DNA from: Gammaproteobacteria bacterium
GTDB lineage: Bacteria; Pseudomonadota; Gammaproteobacteria; Eutrophobiales; Eutrophobiaceae
Reading direction: 5' to 3'
Length of the DNA: 64,000 nucleotides
Assembly (NCBI GenBank): GCA_965243205.1
Contig: CBDEUK010000002.1
Location: 1,536,001-1,600,000 of the forward strand
Below, in pieces: positions 3,877 through 51,050 of this stretch. A program made the translations under genes and the position numbers. Position 1 is the first letter of the stretch. Every line of letters begins with the position of its first letter. Under the pieces are notes generated by a model that had not been told where the DNA came from, ran no database searches, and saw only the letters and a list, made by a program, of their open reading frames with translations.

Positions 3877-4575
3877 ATGAGCGAAATACCAGCTCAACGC
3901 AGAGCTATACGAAGCTTTGTCAAACGTGATAGCCGCATCACATCTGCTCAAAAAGAAGCCATAGAACAACACTGGGAAACTTATGGAGTCGATTTCACTG
4001 CAAAGCCTATAAATCTACGAGATATCTATAATCGTACTGCCCCTAAAATTCTAGATATAGGCACCGGTATGGGTGATAGCACTCTTAGCTTGGCACAACT
4101 ACACCCGGAAAATGACTATCTCGCAGTTGAAGTTCATTTGCCTGGCGTTGGTAGTCTGATTCATAAGGCAGAAAAGTTACAACTTTCTAACATACGAATT
4201 ATTAATCGAGATATTCTAGATATATTGGAACATCAATTAGAAAATAATTCTCTCGATGAAATATGTATTTTCTTCCCTGATCCTTGGCATAAAAAACGTC
4301 ATCATAAAAGACGACTGATCAATATAGAATTTTTTCAGCTATTGTTAACTGTATTGAAACCCCACGGCCGAATCTTCATCGCAACTGACTGGCAGGATTA
4401 TGCAGAACATATTCTTGAAGCTAGCCGCAAAGTAAATGGGTTAATCAACCTTAGTGGAAATAACCAATTTGCTCCGAGACCTTATTGGCGGCCATTAACA
4501 AAATTCGAAAAAAGAGGAATAAATTTAGAACACGAGGTCTGGGATTTGGTATTTTGTAAGAAAAACAATGCTTAA
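3877..4575 (+). CDS. trmB: tRNA (guanine-N7)-methyltransferase
   Basis: Motifs IRSFVKR, LDIGTGMG, FFPDPWHKKRHHKRRL, ATDWQDYA and TKFEKRG; thiG-trmB synteny. Confidence 0.97.
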   Translation: MSEIPAQRRAIRSFVKRDSRITSAQKEAIEQHWETYGVDFTAKPINLRDIYNRTAPKILDIGTGMGDSTLSLAQLHPENDYLAVEVHLPGVGSLIHKAEKLQLSNIRIINRDILDILEHQLENNSLDEICIFFPDPWHKKRHHKRRLINIEFFQLLLTVLKPHGRIFIATDWQDYAEHILEASRKVNGLINLSGNNQFAPRPYWRPLTKFEKRGINLEHEVWDLVFCKKNNA

Positions 4576-4720
4576 AAATAGAGTGTTTCTGGTAAGCATT
4601 TCCAATTACTTCCACCAGAAACACAATTTCCTTTTCCAGTACAATCCTATTACTGGCAATCGTCCAAACTATTTGGATTAAATAGTTTCCTTACCTCATA
4701 CAAAGAAGGAGCTACTACCT
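4576..4720 (-). ncRNA. candidate GGA-rich structured small RNA (CsrB/RsmY/Z-like or base-pairing sRNA)
   Basis: The minus strand has 7 GGA motifs and consecutive hairpins (TCCAAA/TTTGGA; CCAGTA-ATAGGATTG-TACTGG). A terminal 11-bp stem GTGTTTCTGGT/ACCAGAAACAC is followed by TCTATTTTT. A -10-like GATAAT lies at 4733-4728. Confidence 0.5.
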
Positions 4721-4756
4721 GATAACTATTATCAATAAAATTTTTATCACTTTATA

Positions 4757-4772
4757 TAGCTCTAAAGTACTA
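4757..4772. promoter_or_regulatory. imperfect palindromic box, putative binding site of the adjacent NarL/LuxR regulator
   Basis: TAGCTCTAAAGTACTA. A 12/16 identical copy, TAATTCTAAATGACTA, lies at 5528-5543 just upstream of the TonB-dependent receptor gene. Confidence 0.4.
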
Positions 4773-4864: not shown

Positions 4865-5530
4865 ATGATTACACAACACAGTAAACTTGTAATTGCTGAT
4901 GATCATGCCTTAATGCGTATGGCATTAAATGATTTAGTCAAAGACTTCTTACCTGAAGAAAATATTATTCAAATAGAAACACCTGAAACAATTATTGATA
5001 TTGTTAAATCTGATCCAGCAATTTCAACCATCCTGTTAGATTTATTTATGCCTGGGCAAGATATATTTTTGCTGCTATCAAAGCTTCTTGGTTTTAACCC
5101 AAAACTAACAGTCGTAGTAATCTCAGCCTCTGAAAAAAAACAACACATACGAAAAGCGTTAGAATTAGGTGCTAAAGGTTATATTCCAAAATCTTCTGAT
5201 ATGGAAACAATAAAAAATGCTCTAGCTAAAATCTTTACTGGAGAAAGTTACATTCCTAATTTAGAAGTGCACGAAGAAGAAACATTTGATGAAAGCTATG
5301 TACTAGAAAATACTAAAGCTTTCACCGCAGACCAAATAGAAACTTTATTAACGGATAGACAACTACAAATCTTCCAACTACTGGGGCAAGGAAAAAGTAA
5401 TAAAGAAATTGCAGCTAGAATGTATATTTCGATTAATACTGTAAAAATTCACGTTAGCGCTATTTTAAACTCACTTCAGCTTGAAAATCGTGCTCAAGCA
5501 GGCATTATTTCTCGTTCTATTTATCATTAA
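4865..5530 (+). CDS. NarL/LuxR-family DNA-binding response regulator
   Basis: REC domain (IADDH, LLDLFMP, GYIPK) plus a LuxR HTH (LTDRQLQIFQLLGQGKSNKEIA...TVKIHVSAI). Confidence 0.95.
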   Translation: MITQHSKLVIADDHALMRMALNDLVKDFLPEENIIQIETPETIIDIVKSDPAISTILLDLFMPGQDIFLLLSKLLGFNPKLTVVVISASEKKQHIRKALELGAKGYIPKSSDMETIKNALAKIFTGESYIPNLEVHEEETFDESYVLENTKAFTADQIETLLTDRQLQIFQLLGQGKSNKEIAARMYISINTVKIHVSAILNSLQLENRAQAGIISRSIYH

Positions 5531-5549: not shown

Positions 5550-7544
5550 ATGAAAATTACTCGCCTAATAAACAGTATAACTGCCATTATAATTCCGCTT
5601 TATATCACCTTATTAATCATTACTCGACCACTTAATGCTGAAGAATCAACCGATTATAGCGAGGATTTATTTTTCTCAGAGCCTCCATTAATCACTGACG
5701 CCTCACGTTTCTCCCAAAAACAAAAAGATTCAACTGTTTCTACTTCAGTGATTGATCAAGAAATGATCATGGCCTCAGGAGCCATTAATATTGTTGACTT
5801 ATTAAGACTCGTTCCAGGCTTTCAAGTCAGCCATGTTGATGGTGGAAATTTTTTAGCTTCCTATCATGGTTTAGCAAATGAAAACCCGTTCAGATTAGAG
5901 GTAAGAATTAACGGATTTACAGTCAATAATCAATTTACTGATGGCACTGTATGGCAAGCCTTAGGTATTGAAATTGAAGACATCGATCATATCGAAATAA
6001 CACGTGGTTCTAATTCATCAAATTTTGGATTTAATTCGCTCATTGCAAGTATTAACATCATTACGAAATCACCATTAAAAGAACAAGGGACTCAATTAAG
6101 GGCACTTGGTGGAAGTGCTGATACACAAGGATATTTATTAAGGCATGCGGGTAATATTGGTTCTGTTTATTTCAGAGGCGGATTTGATTATAAAAAATCC
6201 AGTGGCTTTGATGCTATTGATGATGATACTGATATTTATCAAGCATCTTTTAAATCGTATTATGCACCAACTCTTCAAGATGAAATTGAATATGAGTTTA
6301 CCTATCACACTGGATTAAATACCTTCGTTGATTTTGAAGAAGGCATTCCTGGCAGTGTTCGTAGAAATAAAACCATGCGACATTCAGTCTCATGGGATCA
6401 TGATTATAGTGGCAGTGATCATTTTCAGGTTCAAGCAACTTATGATCAATTCATTTCAGATTCAGATGATGTTCTAGTTTCACAAAATCCTTTATTACCA
6501 CTTACATCAAGAATTGGTGAACTAGAAGCAAACCGCTTTGATCTAGAAACCTCTTTTTTTAATCAACTTAATAATTCTGTTGAATGGTTATTTGGTGGAG
6601 GTGTACGACATTCAAATATTGATGGTGACACTGTATTACAAGGCAATCAAAGTTCTGTTTCCAGAACCAGTTACCGACTTTTCACAGGTATTAATTGGAA
6701 TATTTCTCAATCATTAAAATTCGAAAGCAGTGTTCTAATTTTTGATTCCAATATTGATGAATTCTCTATCTCTCCTAGAGCAGGCATCAATTATAAATTA
6801 TCACCTAACCATATCCTCAGAAGCAGTATTGCGTATTCGGAACGTTCTCCTGGATTATTAACTCAACATCAGTTTAGCCAGGATCCCAATGCAAACTTTA
6901 TATTTACCTCAGTAATTCCAAATCTTAGCAATGAAAAGCTTATTAGTGCTGATGTAGGCTATCGAGGAATATTTTTTAAATCAAAAATCATCTCTGACTT
7001 AAGAATTTTCTTTGAAAGTTTAAGAGATGGTATAGGTACTACAAGATTTGATCCAAATGGCTTAGGGGCATTATTTGGATCAGGTACCGCAGAAATAACA
7101 AATAATGAGCTTGATGCGAACACTTATGGTATTGAAACTGAAATAAAATATCGAATCAACCCGCAAGCCTTTATTCATTTAAATTACAGTTATGCCAATT
7201 CAAATGGATCCTTTGTTGAAGATAGTTTTAACAATACTATTGGTACTCTCGATAAAAGAACGCCAAAACATACCTTAGGTATTTTAGCCAGCCATCAATT
7301 TCAATACGGTTTTTTTGCCAGCACAGCTTATTATTATCAATCAGATTTACAATGGTTTGGCAATGATCAAAGAACAGCTTCTTACGATCGTTTAGATCTA
7401 AGACTAGGAAAAAATACAAAATTTTATGGTAAAGAAATAAATATAGAATTTTTATTGCAAAACCTATTAGATGATTATATTGAACACAGAGTAGGAAATG
7501 TGTTTGATACTCGAGCTTTTTTAAGGCTTGAACTGGAACTATAG
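5550..7544 (+). CDS. TonB-dependent receptor (plug + beta-barrel)
   Basis: Signal peptide, plug motifs (DLLRLVPGFQV, IDHIEITRGSNS, INIITK) and barrel end motifs (NLLDDY, C-terminal LRLELEL). Confidence 0.9.
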   Translation: MKITRLINSITAIIIPLYITLLIITRPLNAEESTDYSEDLFFSEPPLITDASRFSQKQKDSTVSTSVIDQEMIMASGAINIVDLLRLVPGFQVSHVDGGNFLASYHGLANENPFRLEVRINGFTVNNQFTDGTVWQALGIEIEDIDHIEITRGSNSSNFGFNSLIASINIITKSPLKEQGTQLRALGGSADTQGYLLRHAGNIGSVYFRGGFDYKKSSGFDAIDDDTDIYQASFKSYYAPTLQDEIEYEFTYHTGLNTFVDFEEGIPGSVRRNKTMRHSVSWDHDYSGSDHFQVQATYDQFISDSDDVLVSQNPLLPLTSRIGELEANRFDLETSFFNQLNNSVEWLFGGGVRHSNIDGDTVLQGNQSSVSRTSYRLFTGINWNISQSLKFESSVLIFDSNIDEFSISPRAGINYKLSPNHILRSSIAYSERSPGLLTQHQFSQDPNANFIFTSVIPNLSNEKLISADVGYRGIFFKSKIISDLRIFFESLRDGIGTTRFDPNGLGALFGSGTAEITNNELDANTYGIETEIKYRINPQAFIHLNYSYANSNGSFVEDSFNNTIGTLDKRTPKHTLGILASHQFQYGFFASTAYYYQSDLQWFGNDQRTASYDRLDLRLGKNTKFYGKEINIEFLLQNLLDDYIEHRVGNVFDTRAFLRLELEL

Positions 7545-7549
7545 TTCCC

Positions 7550-8455
7550 ATGAAAAGAATAAAATATATTTTATATTTTATTTTATTCCCGATATATATA
7601 TTGGCGCATCCATCTTTTGCATCTGAAATAAAAATAAGCCTTTTAATTTCTGATAACCCGCAAAGCCAATACGTTGCAAAAAAACTTCAATCAAAATTTT
7701 TCAGATCCGAAGAGAGTGTATCAATTGAAATTTCTAATATAAAAGATAAATTTTATACGAGTAATAACGATACTAGTTTAATTGTAAGTGTAGGCACAAA
7801 ATCTACAAATATTATATTTAATAACGATTCAAAAATACCAATATATAGCCTAATGGTGCCACGCGATATATATAATAATTTAATCAGCACCAAACAGTTA
7901 AAAAATCAATATTCTGCTTTATATCTCGATCAGCCATTTGAACGATATTTATTGTTACTTAAAAAACTCATGCCGAATGCTAAACGTATCGGGATCTTCA
8001 CTAATAACAATTTATCTGGAGAAAAAAGTTCTTATGAACTGATTGCCAAAGAATTAGATTTTGAACTGTTCATAAAACCAATTAATACGAACGAAAACCC
8101 TATTAACGAAATCAATCAATTATTCTCTAAAGTCGATGCAGTCTTGCTTCTACCAGAAAAAATAATTAATCAACTATCTGCAAAATGGATACTTTTCTCA
8201 GCTTTTCGAAATCAGAAACCTGTGGTTGGCTTCTCTAAAAAATTTCTCGATGCTGGAGCATTAGCGAGTATCCATAGTAACCTAGATGATCTTGTTGAAG
8301 AAGCATACCATGATATTTTATATTTTTTAGATAATAAAAAATTCAAAAATAACGCACATTATCCGAAAAGATATGAAATCAAGATTAATGAATCCGTTTC
8401 AAGAACGCTAAACTTATCGATAGATAAGAATAGTTTAATTATTGATGATTTTTAA
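7550..8455 (+). CDS. periplasmic ABC-type substrate-binding-like protein (ABC_sub_bind/YfiR-like), no cognate permease nearby
   Basis: Signal peptide; motifs SALYLDQPFERY, MPNAKRIGI, PVVGFSKKFLDAGALASI and INESVSRTLNL. Confidence 0.8.
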   Translation: MKRIKYILYFILFPIYILAHPSFASEIKISLLISDNPQSQYVAKKLQSKFFRSEESVSIEISNIKDKFYTSNNDTSLIVSVGTKSTNIIFNNDSKIPIYSLMVPRDIYNNLISTKQLKNQYSALYLDQPFERYLLLLKKLMPNAKRIGIFTNNNLSGEKSSYELIAKELDFELFIKPINTNENPINEINQLFSKVDAVLLLPEKIINQLSAKWILFSAFRNQKPVVGFSKKFLDAGALASIHSNLDDLVEEAYHDILYFLDNKKFKNNAHYPKRYEIKINESVSRTLNLSIDKNSLIIDDF

Positions 8456-8457
8456 TC

Positions 8458-10749
8458 ATGTCTAAAATTGATAAAAAAAATAGTCTGAACCGTTCACTAA
8501 CCTTATTGTGGCTTGTTCCTGTAATTTTAATTAGCTTGATTTTAGGTATCTATATCATCACTCAACGACTAACCGATATAGAAGAAACTCTTGTTCAAAA
8601 ACAAATTAGCATTCTAAGATATATTGCATCATCATCAGAAATCGCTATGTATTCAGGTGATATTAATAGACTTGAAGAAATTGCTAATTCAATACCAACC
8701 AATCAAGATATTGAGGGGATCGCATTTTACAGCTCTTCGTTAAAATTAATTAGTACTTCGAATGGATTCTCTCCAGACATTGGTATCTTAAATAAGATAT
8801 CTTCATATAAGCCTGAAACATTAATTAAAGAAAATAACAATTGGTTAATATTTAAACCTATATTAAATCATTCCATAGAAATAGAAGATGATTTTTTTAC
8901 TTCAAACTCAAAACAAAATTCCTTGCTAGGTTATGTTTTTATTTATTCAGCAAAAAACTATTTGGATTCGAAACGTAAAGAGATTATTTCCACCAGCATA
9001 ATAATTTGTCTAACAGGGATCTTAATGACCTTAGCATTTTCAAGAAGGTTGAATTATAAAATTAACCAATCAATTTCTATTATATCAAACTCTATTGACG
9101 AATTAAGCAATGGTAATTTCAGTCATAAAATTGAAGATGATGCAGGAGAACTTTCAAAGTTATATAACGATCTAAATTCTTTATCTGATACATTAAAACA
9201 TCATGATGCTCTGATGAAAGAAAATATCGAAATAGCCGTTAGAAAAAAACAAGAAGCATTAGAAACTGTCGAACAAAAAAATATCGAATTATCTGTTCAA
9301 AAAGAAAAAGCTGAAAAAGCAAACAAAACCAAGGATGAATTTTTAGCAAAAATGAGTCATGAACTCAGGACACCAGTCAATGCGATCAATGGTTTTGCTA
9401 ATTTGATTAAGAAGAAAAGTCAAAGTATCGAAGAAACTGAACATGCTAATATAATTATTAATTCATCTAATGTTCTACTCTCGATCATAAATGAATTATT
9501 AGACTTTTCGAAAATCGAGCTTGGTGAACTTGAACTATCCGAAACAGAATTCGATCTGATTCGATGTATCGATAATGTTTGTCAAATGAACTACGGCGCG
9601 GCTGAAGAAAGAAATATTGGTTTTAATATTGATATCGATCCAGATTTAGCACGATATGTCATCGGCGATGAATATAAACTCACTCAAGTCCTTAATAATA
9701 TTCTATCAAATGCTATCAAATTCACCTCAAAAGGCTATGTGCATTTTGATGTCAAACTAAAAAATAAATCTTTTCAGTATCAAACTATTAACTTTACAAT
9801 TTTAGACACAGGGGTTGGTATACCTAACGAAAAACTATCTGTCATTTTCGATGAGTTTACTCAATTAAAAACTGATATTGATGCCTATAACGAAGGTACA
9901 GGACTTGGTTTATCGATCGTGAAAAAATTAGTTTCTTTATTAAATGGCAGTATAGATATAACTAGTGAGCTAAATAAAGGAACAATTGTTACTCTGACTA
10001 TACCATTAGATACTATTTCAAATATATCTTCTAATGAGAAACAGCCAAACAAATCATCTAATAAAAAAATTATGTCAGAACAAATTGATGATTTAAAAAT
10101 TCTAATTTCCGAAGATCATGACTTTAATCGATTATTATTAATCAATATATTAGGAGAATTTAATTTTGAAACTTATGAGACTAAAAATGGCGAGGAACTT
10201 TTGGATTTTCTTCCTCAAGTTGAACCAGATATTATATTACTTGATTTACATATGCCTGTAATGGATGGTTACACAGTATGTAAAAAAATTCGCAGCCGTA
10301 AAGACAAATTAAAAGACACACCAATTTTAATCATGACTGCAGATGTGATTTCTTTAACAAACTCTAAATTTATTGAAACCCAAGCAAATGACATTATTTA
10401 TAAACCCATTAACGCCGATGAACTTATTGAAAAAATAAGAATGCATTGCCATTCGCCATTGAATGGTCAAAATAAAGTAAAAAAGTTACTTAATAAACCA
10501 TCTTATACAAACGATGAATTATATATAGAGTATAAACGTCTTATTGATATTTCTATAGAACAAAATAAAACCAATGACGAACAACTAAAAGAAACATTGC
10601 ATATGCTAAAAGGCATAGCTTCCCTTAGCAACAATGGAGTACTCACAAATAAGATAAAAACATTAGGAAATACATCAAAAGAATTTCTACATGAAAAATT
10701 GATTGAAATAAAAAAAATTATCGAATCTGAATTAACTTTCATTCATTAA
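8458..10749 (+). CDS. BarA/GacS-like hybrid sensor histidine kinase (TM-periplasmic-TM-HAMP-HisKA-HATPase-REC-short HPt)
   Basis: H-box KDEFLAKMSHELRTP preceded by a BarA-like S-helix (LETVEQKNIELSVQKEKA); NILSNAIKFT; DTGVGI; GTGLGLSI; REC motif LLDLHMPVMDG; HPt-like LHMLKG. Confidence 0.9.
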   Translation: MSKIDKKNSLNRSLTLLWLVPVILISLILGIYIITQRLTDIEETLVQKQISILRYIASSSEIAMYSGDINRLEEIANSIPTNQDIEGIAFYSSSLKLISTSNGFSPDIGILNKISSYKPETLIKENNNWLIFKPILNHSIEIEDDFFTSNSKQNSLLGYVFIYSAKNYLDSKRKEIISTSIIICLTGILMTLAFSRRLNYKINQSISIISNSIDELSNGNFSHKIEDDAGELSKLYNDLNSLSDTLKHHDALMKENIEIAVRKKQEALETVEQKNIELSVQKEKAEKANKTKDEFLAKMSHELRTPVNAINGFANLIKKKSQSIEETEHANIIINSSNVLLSIINELLDFSKIELGELELSETEFDLIRCIDNVCQMNYGAAEERNIGFNIDIDPDLARYVIGDEYKLTQVLNNILSNAIKFTSKGYVHFDVKLKNKSFQYQTINFTILDTGVGIPNEKLSVIFDEFTQLKTDIDAYNEGTGLGLSIVKKLVSLLNGSIDITSELNKGTIVTLTIPLDTISNISSNEKQPNKSSNKKIMSEQIDDLKILISEDHDFNRLLLINILGEFNFETYETKNGEELLDFLPQVEPDIILLDLHMPVMDGYTVCKKIRSRKDKLKDTPILIMTADVISLTNSKFIETQANDIIYKPINADELIEKIRMHCHSPLNGQNKVKKLLNKPSYTNDELYIEYKRLIDISIEQNKTNDEQLKETLHMLKGIASLSNNGVLTNKIKTLGNTSKEFLHEKLIEIKKIIESELTFIH

Positions 10750-12835: not shown

Positions 12836-12911
12836 TGGTGGCCAGGGACAGAATCGAACTGCCGACACAGGGATTTTCAGTCCCCTGCTCTACCGACTGA
12901 GCTACCTGGCC
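12836..12911 (-). tRNA. tRNA-Phe(GAA)
   Basis: Reverse complement reads GGCCAGGTAGCTCAGTCGGTAGAGCAGGGGACTGAAAATCCCTGTGTCGGCAGTTCGATTCTGTCCCTGGCCACCA: 76 nt, GAA anticodon, encoded CCA. Confidence 0.98.
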
Positions 12912-34395: not shown

Positions 34396-36458
34396 GGTTG
34401 AGTGGTATTTAGCATTATATTAATTTGATCATTATAGGAATTTGATAAAAGCTGTTTATCAAAATTTAAATTGCCGAGCCCTCCAATACTTTCAAAATAA
34501 TCTGTGAAAGTTGTATTAGGTCTTGCCGTTGGGTTTGGCGCTACTGCTGGTGTTAAATCCTGTCCAGCAATCATAAGTAAAACTCTATTATCATTAATTT
34601 GATTTAGCCCATTGGAAGTTAAATTCAAGCAATTACCACCTGCACCTGGCACACAAATCGCTGAAGGAGGAAAAGCAGAGTTTATAGAACCTGGCAATGG
34701 TTCTACAACCAAAACTGGATAAGCAACATAAACCATATGATGCCAATTATTAGCCACAAACCATGTTGGTAATACCGGAGGAGATTCACCAACTGATGAA
34801 TATGATGAATCACCATCAATATCAATTCCTAATGTATCAATATGATGATCAAGATTATTTATATTCATCGTTGTAGTGGGTGGAAATGGAACTACTCCTT
34901 GTACTGTTAATGTAGATTGTCCAAGTTGTACAGGCGGATTAGGGTTAATAGTTCCTACATCAGTAATTTGGATAGTCAGCTGATTTGGAAAGTTTCCATT
35001 GATACTAAGATTACGTCTCAAATGGGCTGCAGCAGTGGGAGGAATATAATTTACGTTTGAACCATCATCTGTGTATGTAATAGAGTAAGTTCTTACAAAA
35101 TTATCATAGCATGTACCAGTATTATCGTTTATACAAATCGTTGTTGAACTAATATCAGATGAACAATTGAATGTATTACGTCCAGCATTAATAGCGGAAT
35201 TCCAAACACAATTAATATTATTTACTCCTAAAGCACCTGCAGTCATAGGAGAATTAATAGGAAAACCTGCGGGTGGAGGTATTATATTCACACCGCAATT
35301 TAGTGGGAAGTCATTCGTGCTACAGTAATAAGTCTCAATGCAATTAGAATCCGTTAAACAACTGACATTTGGATCAGCGGGATTAGGCCCGACAAAACCT
35401 GCGGCTGGCAGTCCACTCCAACTAGCATCAAAATTAACTGAAGCAATATTATAAACCGTATTATCTACAAAAACTGGTAACTGACCAAATGTAGTGTTTA
35501 TGACACCTAAAGAATTTACATCAGCTGTTGTAGGATCAAATGGTTTTAACCACGGTAATCCATATACATCATCACAATTAAATGGAGCAATTAGACAATT
35601 TGGATCATCATCAAAAAAATTATTATCGCCATCATCATCAACGCCATTAATATTTTGATCATCCCTATCTGGATCTATTCGATAATATCTCAAGGCACTC
35701 GTTGCTTCATTTAGTACTCTTTTTTCTACCGCTTTCATTAACTCTTGGCGAGTAATTACTAATATTCGATCATTAAAATTTGTACCATCATCACCAGGAA
35801 GAAAAGAAATAAAGTTTCTATCATTACCATCTGAATTTACTGAATCTAAATAGGCTGTATAGTCATTTACACCTAGTATTCGGTTTTGACCAGGTAATGC
35901 AGCACCAGGAGAAAAGATAATCGCAACAATATCTGGGCCATTAATATTGTTATCAACAACAAAAGGCCCATCAATATTTGCAATGGCTTGATCGTCTGAA
36001 ATAGTATCGCTGTTATGATTAGGATTAACAGGTAATGCACCAGTATTCCTATAATTGTCGGCTACCACGTACCATAAATGTTCTCCAGAACCATCTTGTA
36101 ACTCTTCTATTTCCAAAGTTTTATAGGGTAACCAACCTACTGCACCTCCTGTAGAAAGATTTCCACACCCAAGATTATTAGTTTGTCCATCATCATTATT
36201 ATCTGGACATGGCAAATAACCTGGGCCTCTTAAAGTTGTAGCACCGGTTCTTTCTGGTACTGATACAGCATATGCAATTAATGCCTCTTTAGCCCTTTGG
36301 AGAGCATCGTAGGTTTTTTCTATATTTTCACGGTCACGAACTTTTGCATTAAGCTTTGAGACAAGTAGAAAAGATGAGCCAACAATCATTACTAGCACGA
36401 AAGCTAATAACGCTGCGCCTCTTTGAGATTGGATTTTATTGTTTAGGCTAAACAACAT
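34392..36458 (-). CDS. large PilX/GspK-like minor pilin with Cys/Asp-rich insert, possible tip adhesin
   Basis: QSQRG|AALLAFVLVM (no Glu5, K/X-type), GYLPCPD, DxDxDG-like loops, many cysteines. Confidence 0.72.
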   Translation of the reverse strand: MLFSLNNKIQSQRGAALLAFVLVMIVGSSFLLVSKLNAKVRDRENIEKTYDALQRAKEALIAYAVSVPERTGATTLRGPGYLPCPDNNDDGQTNNLGCGNLSTGGAVGWLPYKTLEIEELQDGSGEHLWYVVADNYRNTGALPVNPNHNSDTISDDQAIANIDGPFVVDNNINGPDIVAIIFSPGAALPGQNRILGVNDYTAYLDSVNSDGNDRNFISFLPGDDGTNFNDRILVITRQELMKAVEKRVLNEATSALRYYRIDPDRDDQNINGVDDDGDNNFFDDDPNCLIAPFNCDDVYGLPWLKPFDPTTADVNSLGVINTTFGQLPVFVDNTVYNIASVNFDASWSGLPAAGFVGPNPADPNVSCLTDSNCIETYYCSTNDFPLNCGVNIIPPPAGFPINSPMTAGALGVNNINCVWNSAINAGRNTFNCSSDISSTTICINDNTGTCYDNFVRTYSITYTDDGSNVNYIPPTAAAHLRRNLSINGNFPNQLTIQITDVGTINPNPPVQLGQSTLTVQGVVPFPPTTTMNINNLDHHIDTLGIDIDGDSSYSSVGESPPVLPTWFVANNWHHMVYVAYPVLVVEPLPGSINSAFPPSAICVPGAGGNCLNLTSNGLNQINDNRVLLMIAGQDLTPAVAPNPTARPNTTFTDYFESIGGLGNLNFDKQLLSNSYNDQINIMLNTTQP

Positions 36459-50903: not shown

Positions 50904-50929
50904 GTTGTTCACCTCCAAACAATATAAGC

Positions 50930-51027
50930 GAGCGCCGTTGTGAATCTTGCCCCTTTACTGAGCCTGGCGGGTAATCCAAAATAATTTTGGCAGAATATTT
51001 TCTGGCCCGTCGCAGCGCTCCTCAGTA
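50930..51027 (-). ncRNA. SAH riboswitch
   Basis: Minus strand reads TACTGAGGAGCGCTGCGACGGG...CCCGCCAGGCTCAGTA...CAACGGCGCTC, matching the SAH aptamer P1/P2/P4 pseudoknot; directly upstream of ahcY. Confidence 0.93.
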
Positions 51028-51050
51028 CTGAGGTTTATCAAGAGAGCGCG

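Follow-up and report, generated by a model that had tools for sequence, protein, structure and literature searches.

A predicted small RNA divergent from a response regulator gene in a gammaproteobacterial genome, and its doubtful kinship with the Csr/Rsm RNAs

Does the gap of 289 nt that separates the plus-strand gene trmB from a plus-strand response-regulator gene in a 64,000-nt stretch of bacterial DNA hold the gene of a small RNA (sRNA), and if so, by what means would this RNA act? The stretch, called the window below, is C2:1536001-1600000 of a genome of 2.79 Mb with 36.7% G+C and two contigs, whose relatives in public collections are metagenome-assembled genomes of Gammaproteobacteria. 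A first-pass annotation, made from the sequence alone, described a GGA-rich minus-strand RNA in this gap, divergent from a BarA-like two-component module, and took it for the output of the adjacent regulator, acting either as a sponge for the protein CsrA or by pairing with ribosome-binding sites (RBSs). Our analysis gives about an even chance to a composite reading, namely a divergent sRNA activated by the adjacent regulator, which would pair mainly with Shine-Dalgarno (SD) sequences and would bind CsrA with low capacity at most. The parts of this reading differ in strength. That the RNA gene is real appears fairly probable from the elements described below; its dependence on the adjacent regulator falls a little short of an even bet; anti-SD pairing as its main mode is a tentative proposal; and it is unlikely that the RNA binds CsrA at all.

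The predicted sRNA extends over about 146 nt of the minus strand, from 4721 to 4576, where we placed the 5' end by a -10-like hexamer and the 3' end by a terminator. The hexamer, GATAAT at 4733-4728, matches TATAAT at 5/6 positions and is preceded by no usable -35 element (TATAAA, 3/6), as the first-pass annotation had described. Farther upstream, at 4773-4756, lies an imperfect 7-4-7 palindrome of 18 bp, ATAGTAC-TTTA-GAGCTAT in the minus-strand reading, which is a candidate operator for the regulator. Its arms are complementary at 5/7 positions, and, for a transcription start near 4721, its centre falls at -43.5; the palindromic box noted earlier at 4757-4772, near -44, is the core of this element. 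The right half-site, GAGCTAT, resembles the palindrome type of the distant locus L042 (see below). The 5' part of the RNA contains the anti-SD-like stretch that had been claimed for it, CUCCUUCUU at 4711-4703 (RNA positions 11-19), with the core CUCCUU at 4711-4706. In the predicted fold this core pairs with GAGG/AAGGA within a 5' hairpin (4720-4680), which also buries the GGA at 4690. It is followed by the hairpin CCAGUA-AUAGGAUUG-UACUGG (4656-4636), by a single-stranded linker, AAAAGGAAAUU (4635-4625), and by an intrinsic terminator (4624-4574). The terminator consists of a hairpin at 4624-4583, with the 11-bp outer stem reported before, an inner stem and a loop with UUGGAAA, and of the T-rich tail UCUAUUUUU at 4582-4574, which overlaps the trmB stop codon (4573-4575). 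It probably also ends trmB transcripts; the tails compare as TCTATTTTT on the minus strand versus AATTTCCTTTTC on the plus strand.

No ORF (open reading frame) of at least 20 aa is contained inside the predicted sRNA. A small-ORF reading was set aside, since every ORF of at least 20 aa passes the terminator into antisense trmB, and AAGGAG as the SD sequence of a plus-strand mini-ORF was dropped because inspection by eye found no start codon after AAGGAG in the window. A blastn search of the genome found no paralogue of the sRNA; the best other match had an E value of 0.056 over 23 nt. An identical piece of 241 nt occurs in a marine metagenome.

Evidence for an RNA gene came from comparison with related loci. 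Five related genomes of the same family have the four-gene operon that begins with the regulator gene, with proteins 31-52% identical. Its gene order is kept in 5/5 fetched loci, in none of which trmB is its neighbour. The six family loci are those of the window, L035, L036 (same genus), L037, L038 and L039. When all 6-mers of the whole intergenic regions were compared in an unbiased manner, CTCCTT was the sole 6-mer on the strand opposite the regulator that is common to the window, L035, L036, L038 and L039; the rank-based p for a shared 6-mer of this or a lower probability was 0.0019, or 0.010 without L039. The 6-mers shared by four loci are otherwise palindrome words (TAGTAC and similar) and the AT-rich TTTATT, and AAGGAG was met only once on the sRNA strand. 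In the predicted counterparts of L038 and L039 the CUCCUU stretch is open, with unpaired probabilities of 0.80 and 0.75. Among the actions proposed earlier, RBS pairing is thus the one best supported by this common hexamer, although no enrichment of targets accompanies it (see below).

The palindrome is likewise a recurrent element. Related 7-4-7 palindromes lie 45-125 nt from the regulator start, and the one in L036 is perfect (ATAGTAC-ATAA-GTACTAT; matched by 0/2000 shuffles). Compared with it, the window palindrome agrees at 12/14 positions (p 0.002, that is, 0.2% of intergenic-region shuffles are as good), the two palindromes of L035 at 12/14 and 11/14 (p 0.003) and that of L038 at 11/14 (p 0.04); the element is weaker in L037 and L039. 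More distant loci carry their own versions, perfect in L042 (CTAGCTC-TTCG-GAGCTAG) and 6/7 in L043. In 3/6 loci a -10-like hexamer that faces away from the regulator starts exactly 22 nt past the palindrome, GATAAT in the window, TATATT in L035 and TAGATT in L036; hexamers of this kind have a density of 0.015-0.046 per position. U-tailed terminators are found only, or in better form, on the sRNA strand in 4/6 loci, namely the window, L036 (tail TTTTTTTT, with CGTGAG on the opposite strand), L038 (TTTTTATTT) and L039 (TTTTTTTT); in L036 the strand that carries the flanking genes lacks a U tract at this terminator, and unidirectional terminators are present also in L042, L043 and L055. The predicted RNA lengths, 145 nt in L036 and 146 nt in the window, are almost identical. 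The palindrome, the 22-nt spacing and the terminators make it plausible, as the first-pass annotation had it, that the RNA is the output of the adjacent regulator. The intergenic regions of the homologous operons, which that annotation had pointed to as a check, share such short features, while their RNA bodies do not align.

The same elements can be read without any sRNA, as a bidirectional trmB terminator next to an operator and promoter through which the regulator operon regulates itself, with the surplus of GGA and the minor hairpins both due to chance. We regard this alternative as doubtful, though of real weight, and several observations speak for it and weigh against an RNA gene. trmB itself needs a terminator hairpin, and this one abuts its stop codon and folds as strongly on the trmB strand (z-score -5.10) as on the minus strand (-4.83; 0/200 shuffles as good). 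The z-score of the whole RNA, -2.97, is due to this terminator; for the 96-nt RNA body alone it is only -1.23, a value that 19/200 shuffles equal. A consensus promoter and terminator scanner, whose rules call for a -35 hexamer that agrees at 4/6 positions or more and for a terminator loop of at most 8, flagged neither the candidate promoter nor the candidate terminator in the window, and nothing in L036. On the regulator strand, -10-like hexamers lie 39 nt (window) and 38 nt (L036) from the palindrome, which is a class I distance, so that the palindrome could serve the regulator operon's own promoter alone. L037, whose regulator is the closest (52-55% identity), offers too little space for an RNA gene: only 141 nt lie in its gap to purE, and these contain CCUCCC but neither CUCCUU nor a clear terminator. 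Without an sRNA, however, the exact 22-nt distance from palindrome to -10 hexamer on the opposite strand of three loci has no explanation, nor have the terminators confined to the opposite strand in L036, L038, L039, L042, L043 and L055, where trmB is not a neighbour, nor the strand-specific sharing of CUCCUU; some 100 nt (4625-4725) would have no role.

Further points against the sRNA concern the comparison itself. L038 and L039 come from a single genus and cannot count as independent, and L037 and L038 have no -10 hexamer at +22. The gap sequence (311 nt) has no DNA homologue in 40 related genomes, except for a 27-nt chance match, and a metagenome scan with the regulator protein gave 17 loci, none of them full-length above 29% identity; as no close relative was found, a covariation analysis was not possible. 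As the RNA bodies of the six loci do not align, conservation is that of short features with partly author-chosen boundaries. CUCCUU is mostly paired in the predicted folds of the window (unpaired probability 0.21) and of L036 (0.20). The RNA body has fewer exact complements in 2832 translation-start regions than a reversed control, with 62/15/2 versus 107/29/5 for 9-, 10- and 11-mers. Matches to the palindrome at 12/14 positions are not above chance genome-wide (11 seen, 22.7 expected), and 13/14 matches numbered 3 where 1.3 were expected, so the regulon search did not rise above chance. Candidate regulon members near carbonic anhydrase, GGDEF and argC-like genes were rejected, since the contexts examined were unconvincing, and the 9-mer AAUAGGAUU, common with the same-genus locus L036, was dropped because by our own arithmetic its probability of arising by chance is about 0.2. 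One palindrome-like site of 12/14, at C2:1483255-1483272 (minus strand; L141), has GATAAA after 22 nt and lies in a leader with 6 GGA, some 340 nt ahead of a carbonic anhydrase gene; its spacing equals that of the candidate, but such sites occur at chance frequency genome-wide.

A real minus-strand promoter need not imply an RNA that acts in trans. Its product might matter only in cis, as a divergent spacer transcript, through transcriptional interference or by reading through antisense to the trmB 3' end. Such a role would accord with RNA bodies that are not conserved among the loci, with the failure to find enriched targets and with a transcript that would head straight into trmB. Yet a strong terminator would halt this transcript exactly at the trmB stop codon, the five related loci do not have trmB as a neighbour, and a CUCCUU confined to one strand points to a function for the RNA as such; we therefore hold a purely cis-acting product to be improbable.

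Would such an RNA be a CsrA sponge? The first-pass annotation had counted seven GGA triplets and put the chance expectation at 1-2, and both figures were borne out: seven minus-strand GGA are present, with starts at 4690, 4665, 4647, 4637, 4631, 4613 and 4603, and 1.29 per 150 nt are expected from the genome-wide frequency. At least seven GGA occur in 0.084% of all 150-nt windows, and the Poisson P for the count at the locus is 3.6e-4. We then simulated both strands of the non-ORF DNA of the genome (199,024 nt) by a first-order Markov model in 40 runs. Clusters of at least 7 GGA per 150 nt arose at a mean of 1.6 per simulated genome, and 33/40 simulations had at least one; because about 1.6 such clusters per genome are expected by chance, the GGA density of the locus is not significant genome-wide. 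The genome itself has four clusters, of which two belong to the rRNA operon, one to an apparent short ORF and one to the candidate locus. The sole other non-rRNA stretch with 7 GGA per 150 nt outside ORFs of at least 90 aa, C2:66018-66297 (plus strand), resembles by eye a short protein-coding ORF. Counting GGA by itself over-calls CsrA sponges in AT-rich genomes.

The first-pass annotation had put some of the triplets in hairpin loops or a linker and others in predicted stems. One sits in the loop of a hairpin and one in the linker, and most GGA are not in loops. The best CsrA-type site is the GGA at 4647-4645, in the 9-nt loop AAUAGGAUUG above a 6-bp stem (unpaired probability 0.99), and the linker GGA at 4631-4629 (0.58) sits 16 nt past it. 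Over all seven triplets the unpaired probabilities are 0.99 and 1.00 (clearly exposed), 0.58 and 0.66 (intermediate), and 0.01, 0.09 and 0.29 (buried). For the CsrA SELEX consensus, the loop preference and the A(N)GGA site criteria we relied on the review PMC7652899. GGA richness is not common to the equivalent regions of related loci: in the predicted counterparts the Poisson P was 0.012 in L035, 0.08 in L036 and 0.73 each in L038 and L039. The GGA-rich 3' half is specific to the genome of the window.

The operon next to the RNA begins with the response-regulator gene (4865-5530, 221 aa, with REC and LuxR/GerE HTH domains by Pfam), the presumed activator of the sRNA. It continues, also on the plus strand, with genes for a TonB-dependent receptor at 5550-7544, for a periplasmic binding protein of family PF04392 at 7550-8455, and for a hybrid histidine kinase with sCache_4, HisKA, HATPase and REC domains (8458-10749). 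The module had been called BarA-like, and this fits the N-terminal half of the kinase: the BarA model aligned over residues 7-539, and no other kinase of the genome covers BarA N-terminal positions 3-539 (about 540 residues). The score, though, was 407.5 bits where the cut-off for the BarA equivalog is 890, and no Hpt domain was found in the kinase by Pfam at E up to 0.001. Nor is the regulator a GacA/UvrY orthologue. It scored 55.7 bits against the UvrY/GacA model NF007018 (cut-off 280) and ranked ninth among 45 genome matches to the GacA model, eight of which score higher; its best-scoring model was ErdR, with 113.6 bits, still below the cut-off of 390. The two best GacA-like regulators of the genome, both below the cut-off, adjoin UhpB/NarX-type kinases, and genome-wide no regulator or kinase attains the NCBIfam cut-offs for UvrY/GacA or BarA.

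The analogy with BarA/UvrY-CsrB and GacS/GacA-RsmY/Z found no backing in covariance models either. A scan of 1401 nt at the locus against Rfam at E up to 10, a check that the first-pass annotation had named, gave 8 weak matches, none of them to a Csr/Rsm family (CsrB RF00018, RsmY RF00195, PrrB_RsmZ RF00166 and TwoAYGGAY RF01731; clan CL00106); CsrC and RsmX were covered by the all-family Rfam scans of the locus and the window. Whole-genome searches with RsmY, RsmZ and CsrB gave between them best scores of 25.8/57, 20.7/44 and 12.6/71 bits, none at the candidate, and the best TwoAYGGAY score was 39.6 bits against a gathering score of 43, again not at the candidate. Rfam matches on nine related loci were to tRNA only.

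That the RNA is the output of a BarA/GacA-like system and sequesters CsrA through its GGA motifs is accordingly a reading of low probability. It draws on the seven GGA in 146 nt, on the loop and linker GGA, both with an AGGA core, and on the BarA-like N-terminal part of the kinase. It also draws on the two csrA genes of the genome, one per contig, which the proposal had needed (csrA is present in 5/5 related genomes as well), and on the fact that no known family fills the sponge role, CsrB, RsmY, RsmZ, GacA/UvrY and BarA all being below thresholds. Against it stand the three buried GGA, an A(N)GGA/AGGA core in only 3/7, the missing Csr/Rsm match, an ErdR-like rather than GacA-like regulator, a palindrome unlike the GacA box, the GGA enrichment that is weak in L036 and absent in L038 and L039, a GGA density at the genome-wide chance level, and much better CsrA-type hairpins elsewhere in the genome, described below. 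As an observation in its own right, the genome has two csrA genes, yet no UvrY/GacA, BarA, CsrB, RsmY or RsmZ above threshold.

We therefore return to the regulator-activated divergent sRNA and to how it might work. The LuxR/NarL-type regulator, phosphorylated through the receptor, binding-protein and kinase pathway, would bind the palindrome at 4773-4756. This element would occupy a class II activator position and replace the missing -35 hexamer, so that the regulator would drive the GATAAT promoter away from its own gene; from the same palindrome, at about -60 on the other strand, it may also autoregulate the operon. A putative operator thus appears to lie between back-to-back RNA and regulator genes at an activating distance. 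The transcript of about 145 nt (4721 to 4576) would stop at the hairpin that also serves trmB. Its 5'-proximal CUCCUU(CUU) would then pair with strong AAGGAG SD sequences and occlude a small set of RBSs. AAGGAG is rare in the genome, being found in 43/2832 crude translation-start regions, and five start regions hold an 8-mer complement. Occlusion of a few strong RBSs is the most likely action because the anti-SD hexamer is conserved, AAGGAG is rare and hfq is present (106.6 bits, above the cut-off); a terminator with a U tail together with an hfq gene is what Hfq-type base-pairing sRNAs call for, and the RNA may bind Hfq. Target energies computed with RNAduplex were discarded, as they were dominated by unrealistic long loops. 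In a secondary role, the exposed AUAGGAU loop and the AAGGAA linker, 16 nt apart, could hold about one CsrA dimer, which would not amount to sequestration in the manner of CsrB.

A more far-reaching version is highly speculative. In it, the regulator, receptor, binding protein and BarA-like kinase would form a dedicated envelope signal-to-sRNA pathway, and occupancy by CsrA of the SD-like GAGG/AAGGA, which would also be a CsrA-type site, would gate the CUCCUU seed masked by it, so that the RNA would couple two modes of action. If the gating by CsrA were true, a nutrient-uptake sensor would be tied into the Csr network. If the pathway were dedicated, the divergent RNA would be the main direct target of the regulator, and L036, L038/L039 and L042/L043 would carry non-homologous RNAs in the corresponding place, governed by one operator family.

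Among known systems, OxyR/OxyS, GcvA/GcvB, SgrR/SgrS and LuxO/Qrr1 are pairs in which an sRNA is divergent from the gene of its activating transcription factor. The candidate is like OxyS, GcvB, SgrS and Qrr1 in standing back to back with a regulator gene, with a palindrome in the shared intergenic region, and in being short, with an intrinsic terminator and a C/U-rich stretch able to pair with RBSs. It differs from them in its NarL/LuxR-type regulator, which heads a receptor, binding-protein and BarA-like kinase operon, and in having no sequence or Rfam kinship with them. With CsrB, CsrC and RsmX/Y/Z the candidate has in common a GGA density of about one per 21 nt, GGA in a loop and a linker, a terminator, an upstream 18-bp palindrome, a nearby BarA-type kinase part (periplasmic, HAMP and catalytic) and the presence of csrA. 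It differs from these RNAs by the lack of a covariance match, by having most GGA paired, by a regulator that is not a GacA/UvrY orthologue, by GGA richness that is not kept in orthologous loci, and by the position of its palindrome at about -43.5, GacA boxes lying further upstream. McaS is a dual-function sRNA that base-pairs and binds CsrA and is not encoded beside a two-component system; by analogy, the pairing region and the few exposed GGA of the candidate could do both jobs, but the two RNAs are not homologous. The candidate would thus be a new orphan sRNA that resembles the regulator-adjacent sRNAs, its likeness to Csr/Rsm being superficial only. If real, it would provide a readable output for a widespread and unstudied signalling module. 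Both the proposed operator, the 7-4-7 palindrome, and the proposed seed, CUCCUU, can be tested; the locus opens no new class of mechanism. A full-text literature search found no publication on the receptor/PF04392/BarA-like kinase module, which is a weak negative.

A family of GGA-hairpin RNAs is present in several copies in this genome; its members form divergent pairs, and their loops, for example ACAAGGAUGU and ACAUGGAUGU, come near the consensus of CsrA sites. TwoAYGGAY-like elements with a GGA hairpin were located at C2 ~34936-35295 (L005:640-746 on the plus strand, with a minus-strand partner), at C2 ~42.0-42.4 kb on the minus strand (L006:353-431), at C2:1112864-1113256 (L007) and at C2:2029309-2029742 (L008), and they score 39.6 and 39.1 bits, just below the gathering score. 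A 2026 preprint (10.64898/2026.09.22.753630) reports that TwoAYGGAY elements come in several copies and that 68.4% of their doublets are divergent; the layout of the GGA hairpins in this genome matches the pattern given there. The candidate and TwoAYGGAY (RF01731) are both GGA-bearing hairpin RNAs of Pseudomonadota. The elements of this genome are, however, multi-copy, arranged in divergent pairs and provided with near-consensus ACA(N)GGAUGU loops, whereas the candidate is single-copy and has no RF01731 match.

Several other features were noted in the related loci. On the strand opposite the regulator, L042:1910-2630 and L043:1875-2595 have in common some 450 nt of non-coding sequence, a region in which conserved blocks alternate with variable ones and which ends in a unidirectional terminator. 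It is divergent from the same operon type and lies downstream of a perfect 7-4-7 palindrome; no Rfam match and no common ORF were found in it, and it is a candidate for a new structured RNA. L038 and L039 (g14) have in common, upstream of the regulator on the opposite strand, a long conserved hairpin, CACGGGAG...CCCGUG, in whose loop one segment is invariant and which is followed by a single-stranded CCUCCUU and a terminator; the hairpin stretch could alternatively encode a mini-ORF ending in YMGSSE. At L039:4471-6431 the G089 TonB-dependent receptor was recovered in two tblastn pieces (query 28-295 and 328-664) and may be disrupted. The receptor, binding-protein and kinase core is common across Gamma- and Betaproteobacteria, and a regulator gene stands directly upstream of it in 6/77 fetched loci, among them two whose records are those of L035 and L037.

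On the other side of the gap, trmB occupies 3877-4575 of the plus strand (TIGR00091, 175 bits). Elsewhere in the window, a SAH riboswitch at 50923-51029 (minus strand, 56.6 bits) and a tRNA at 12839-12911 (minus strand, 70.1 bits) are the sole Rfam matches above the gathering score.

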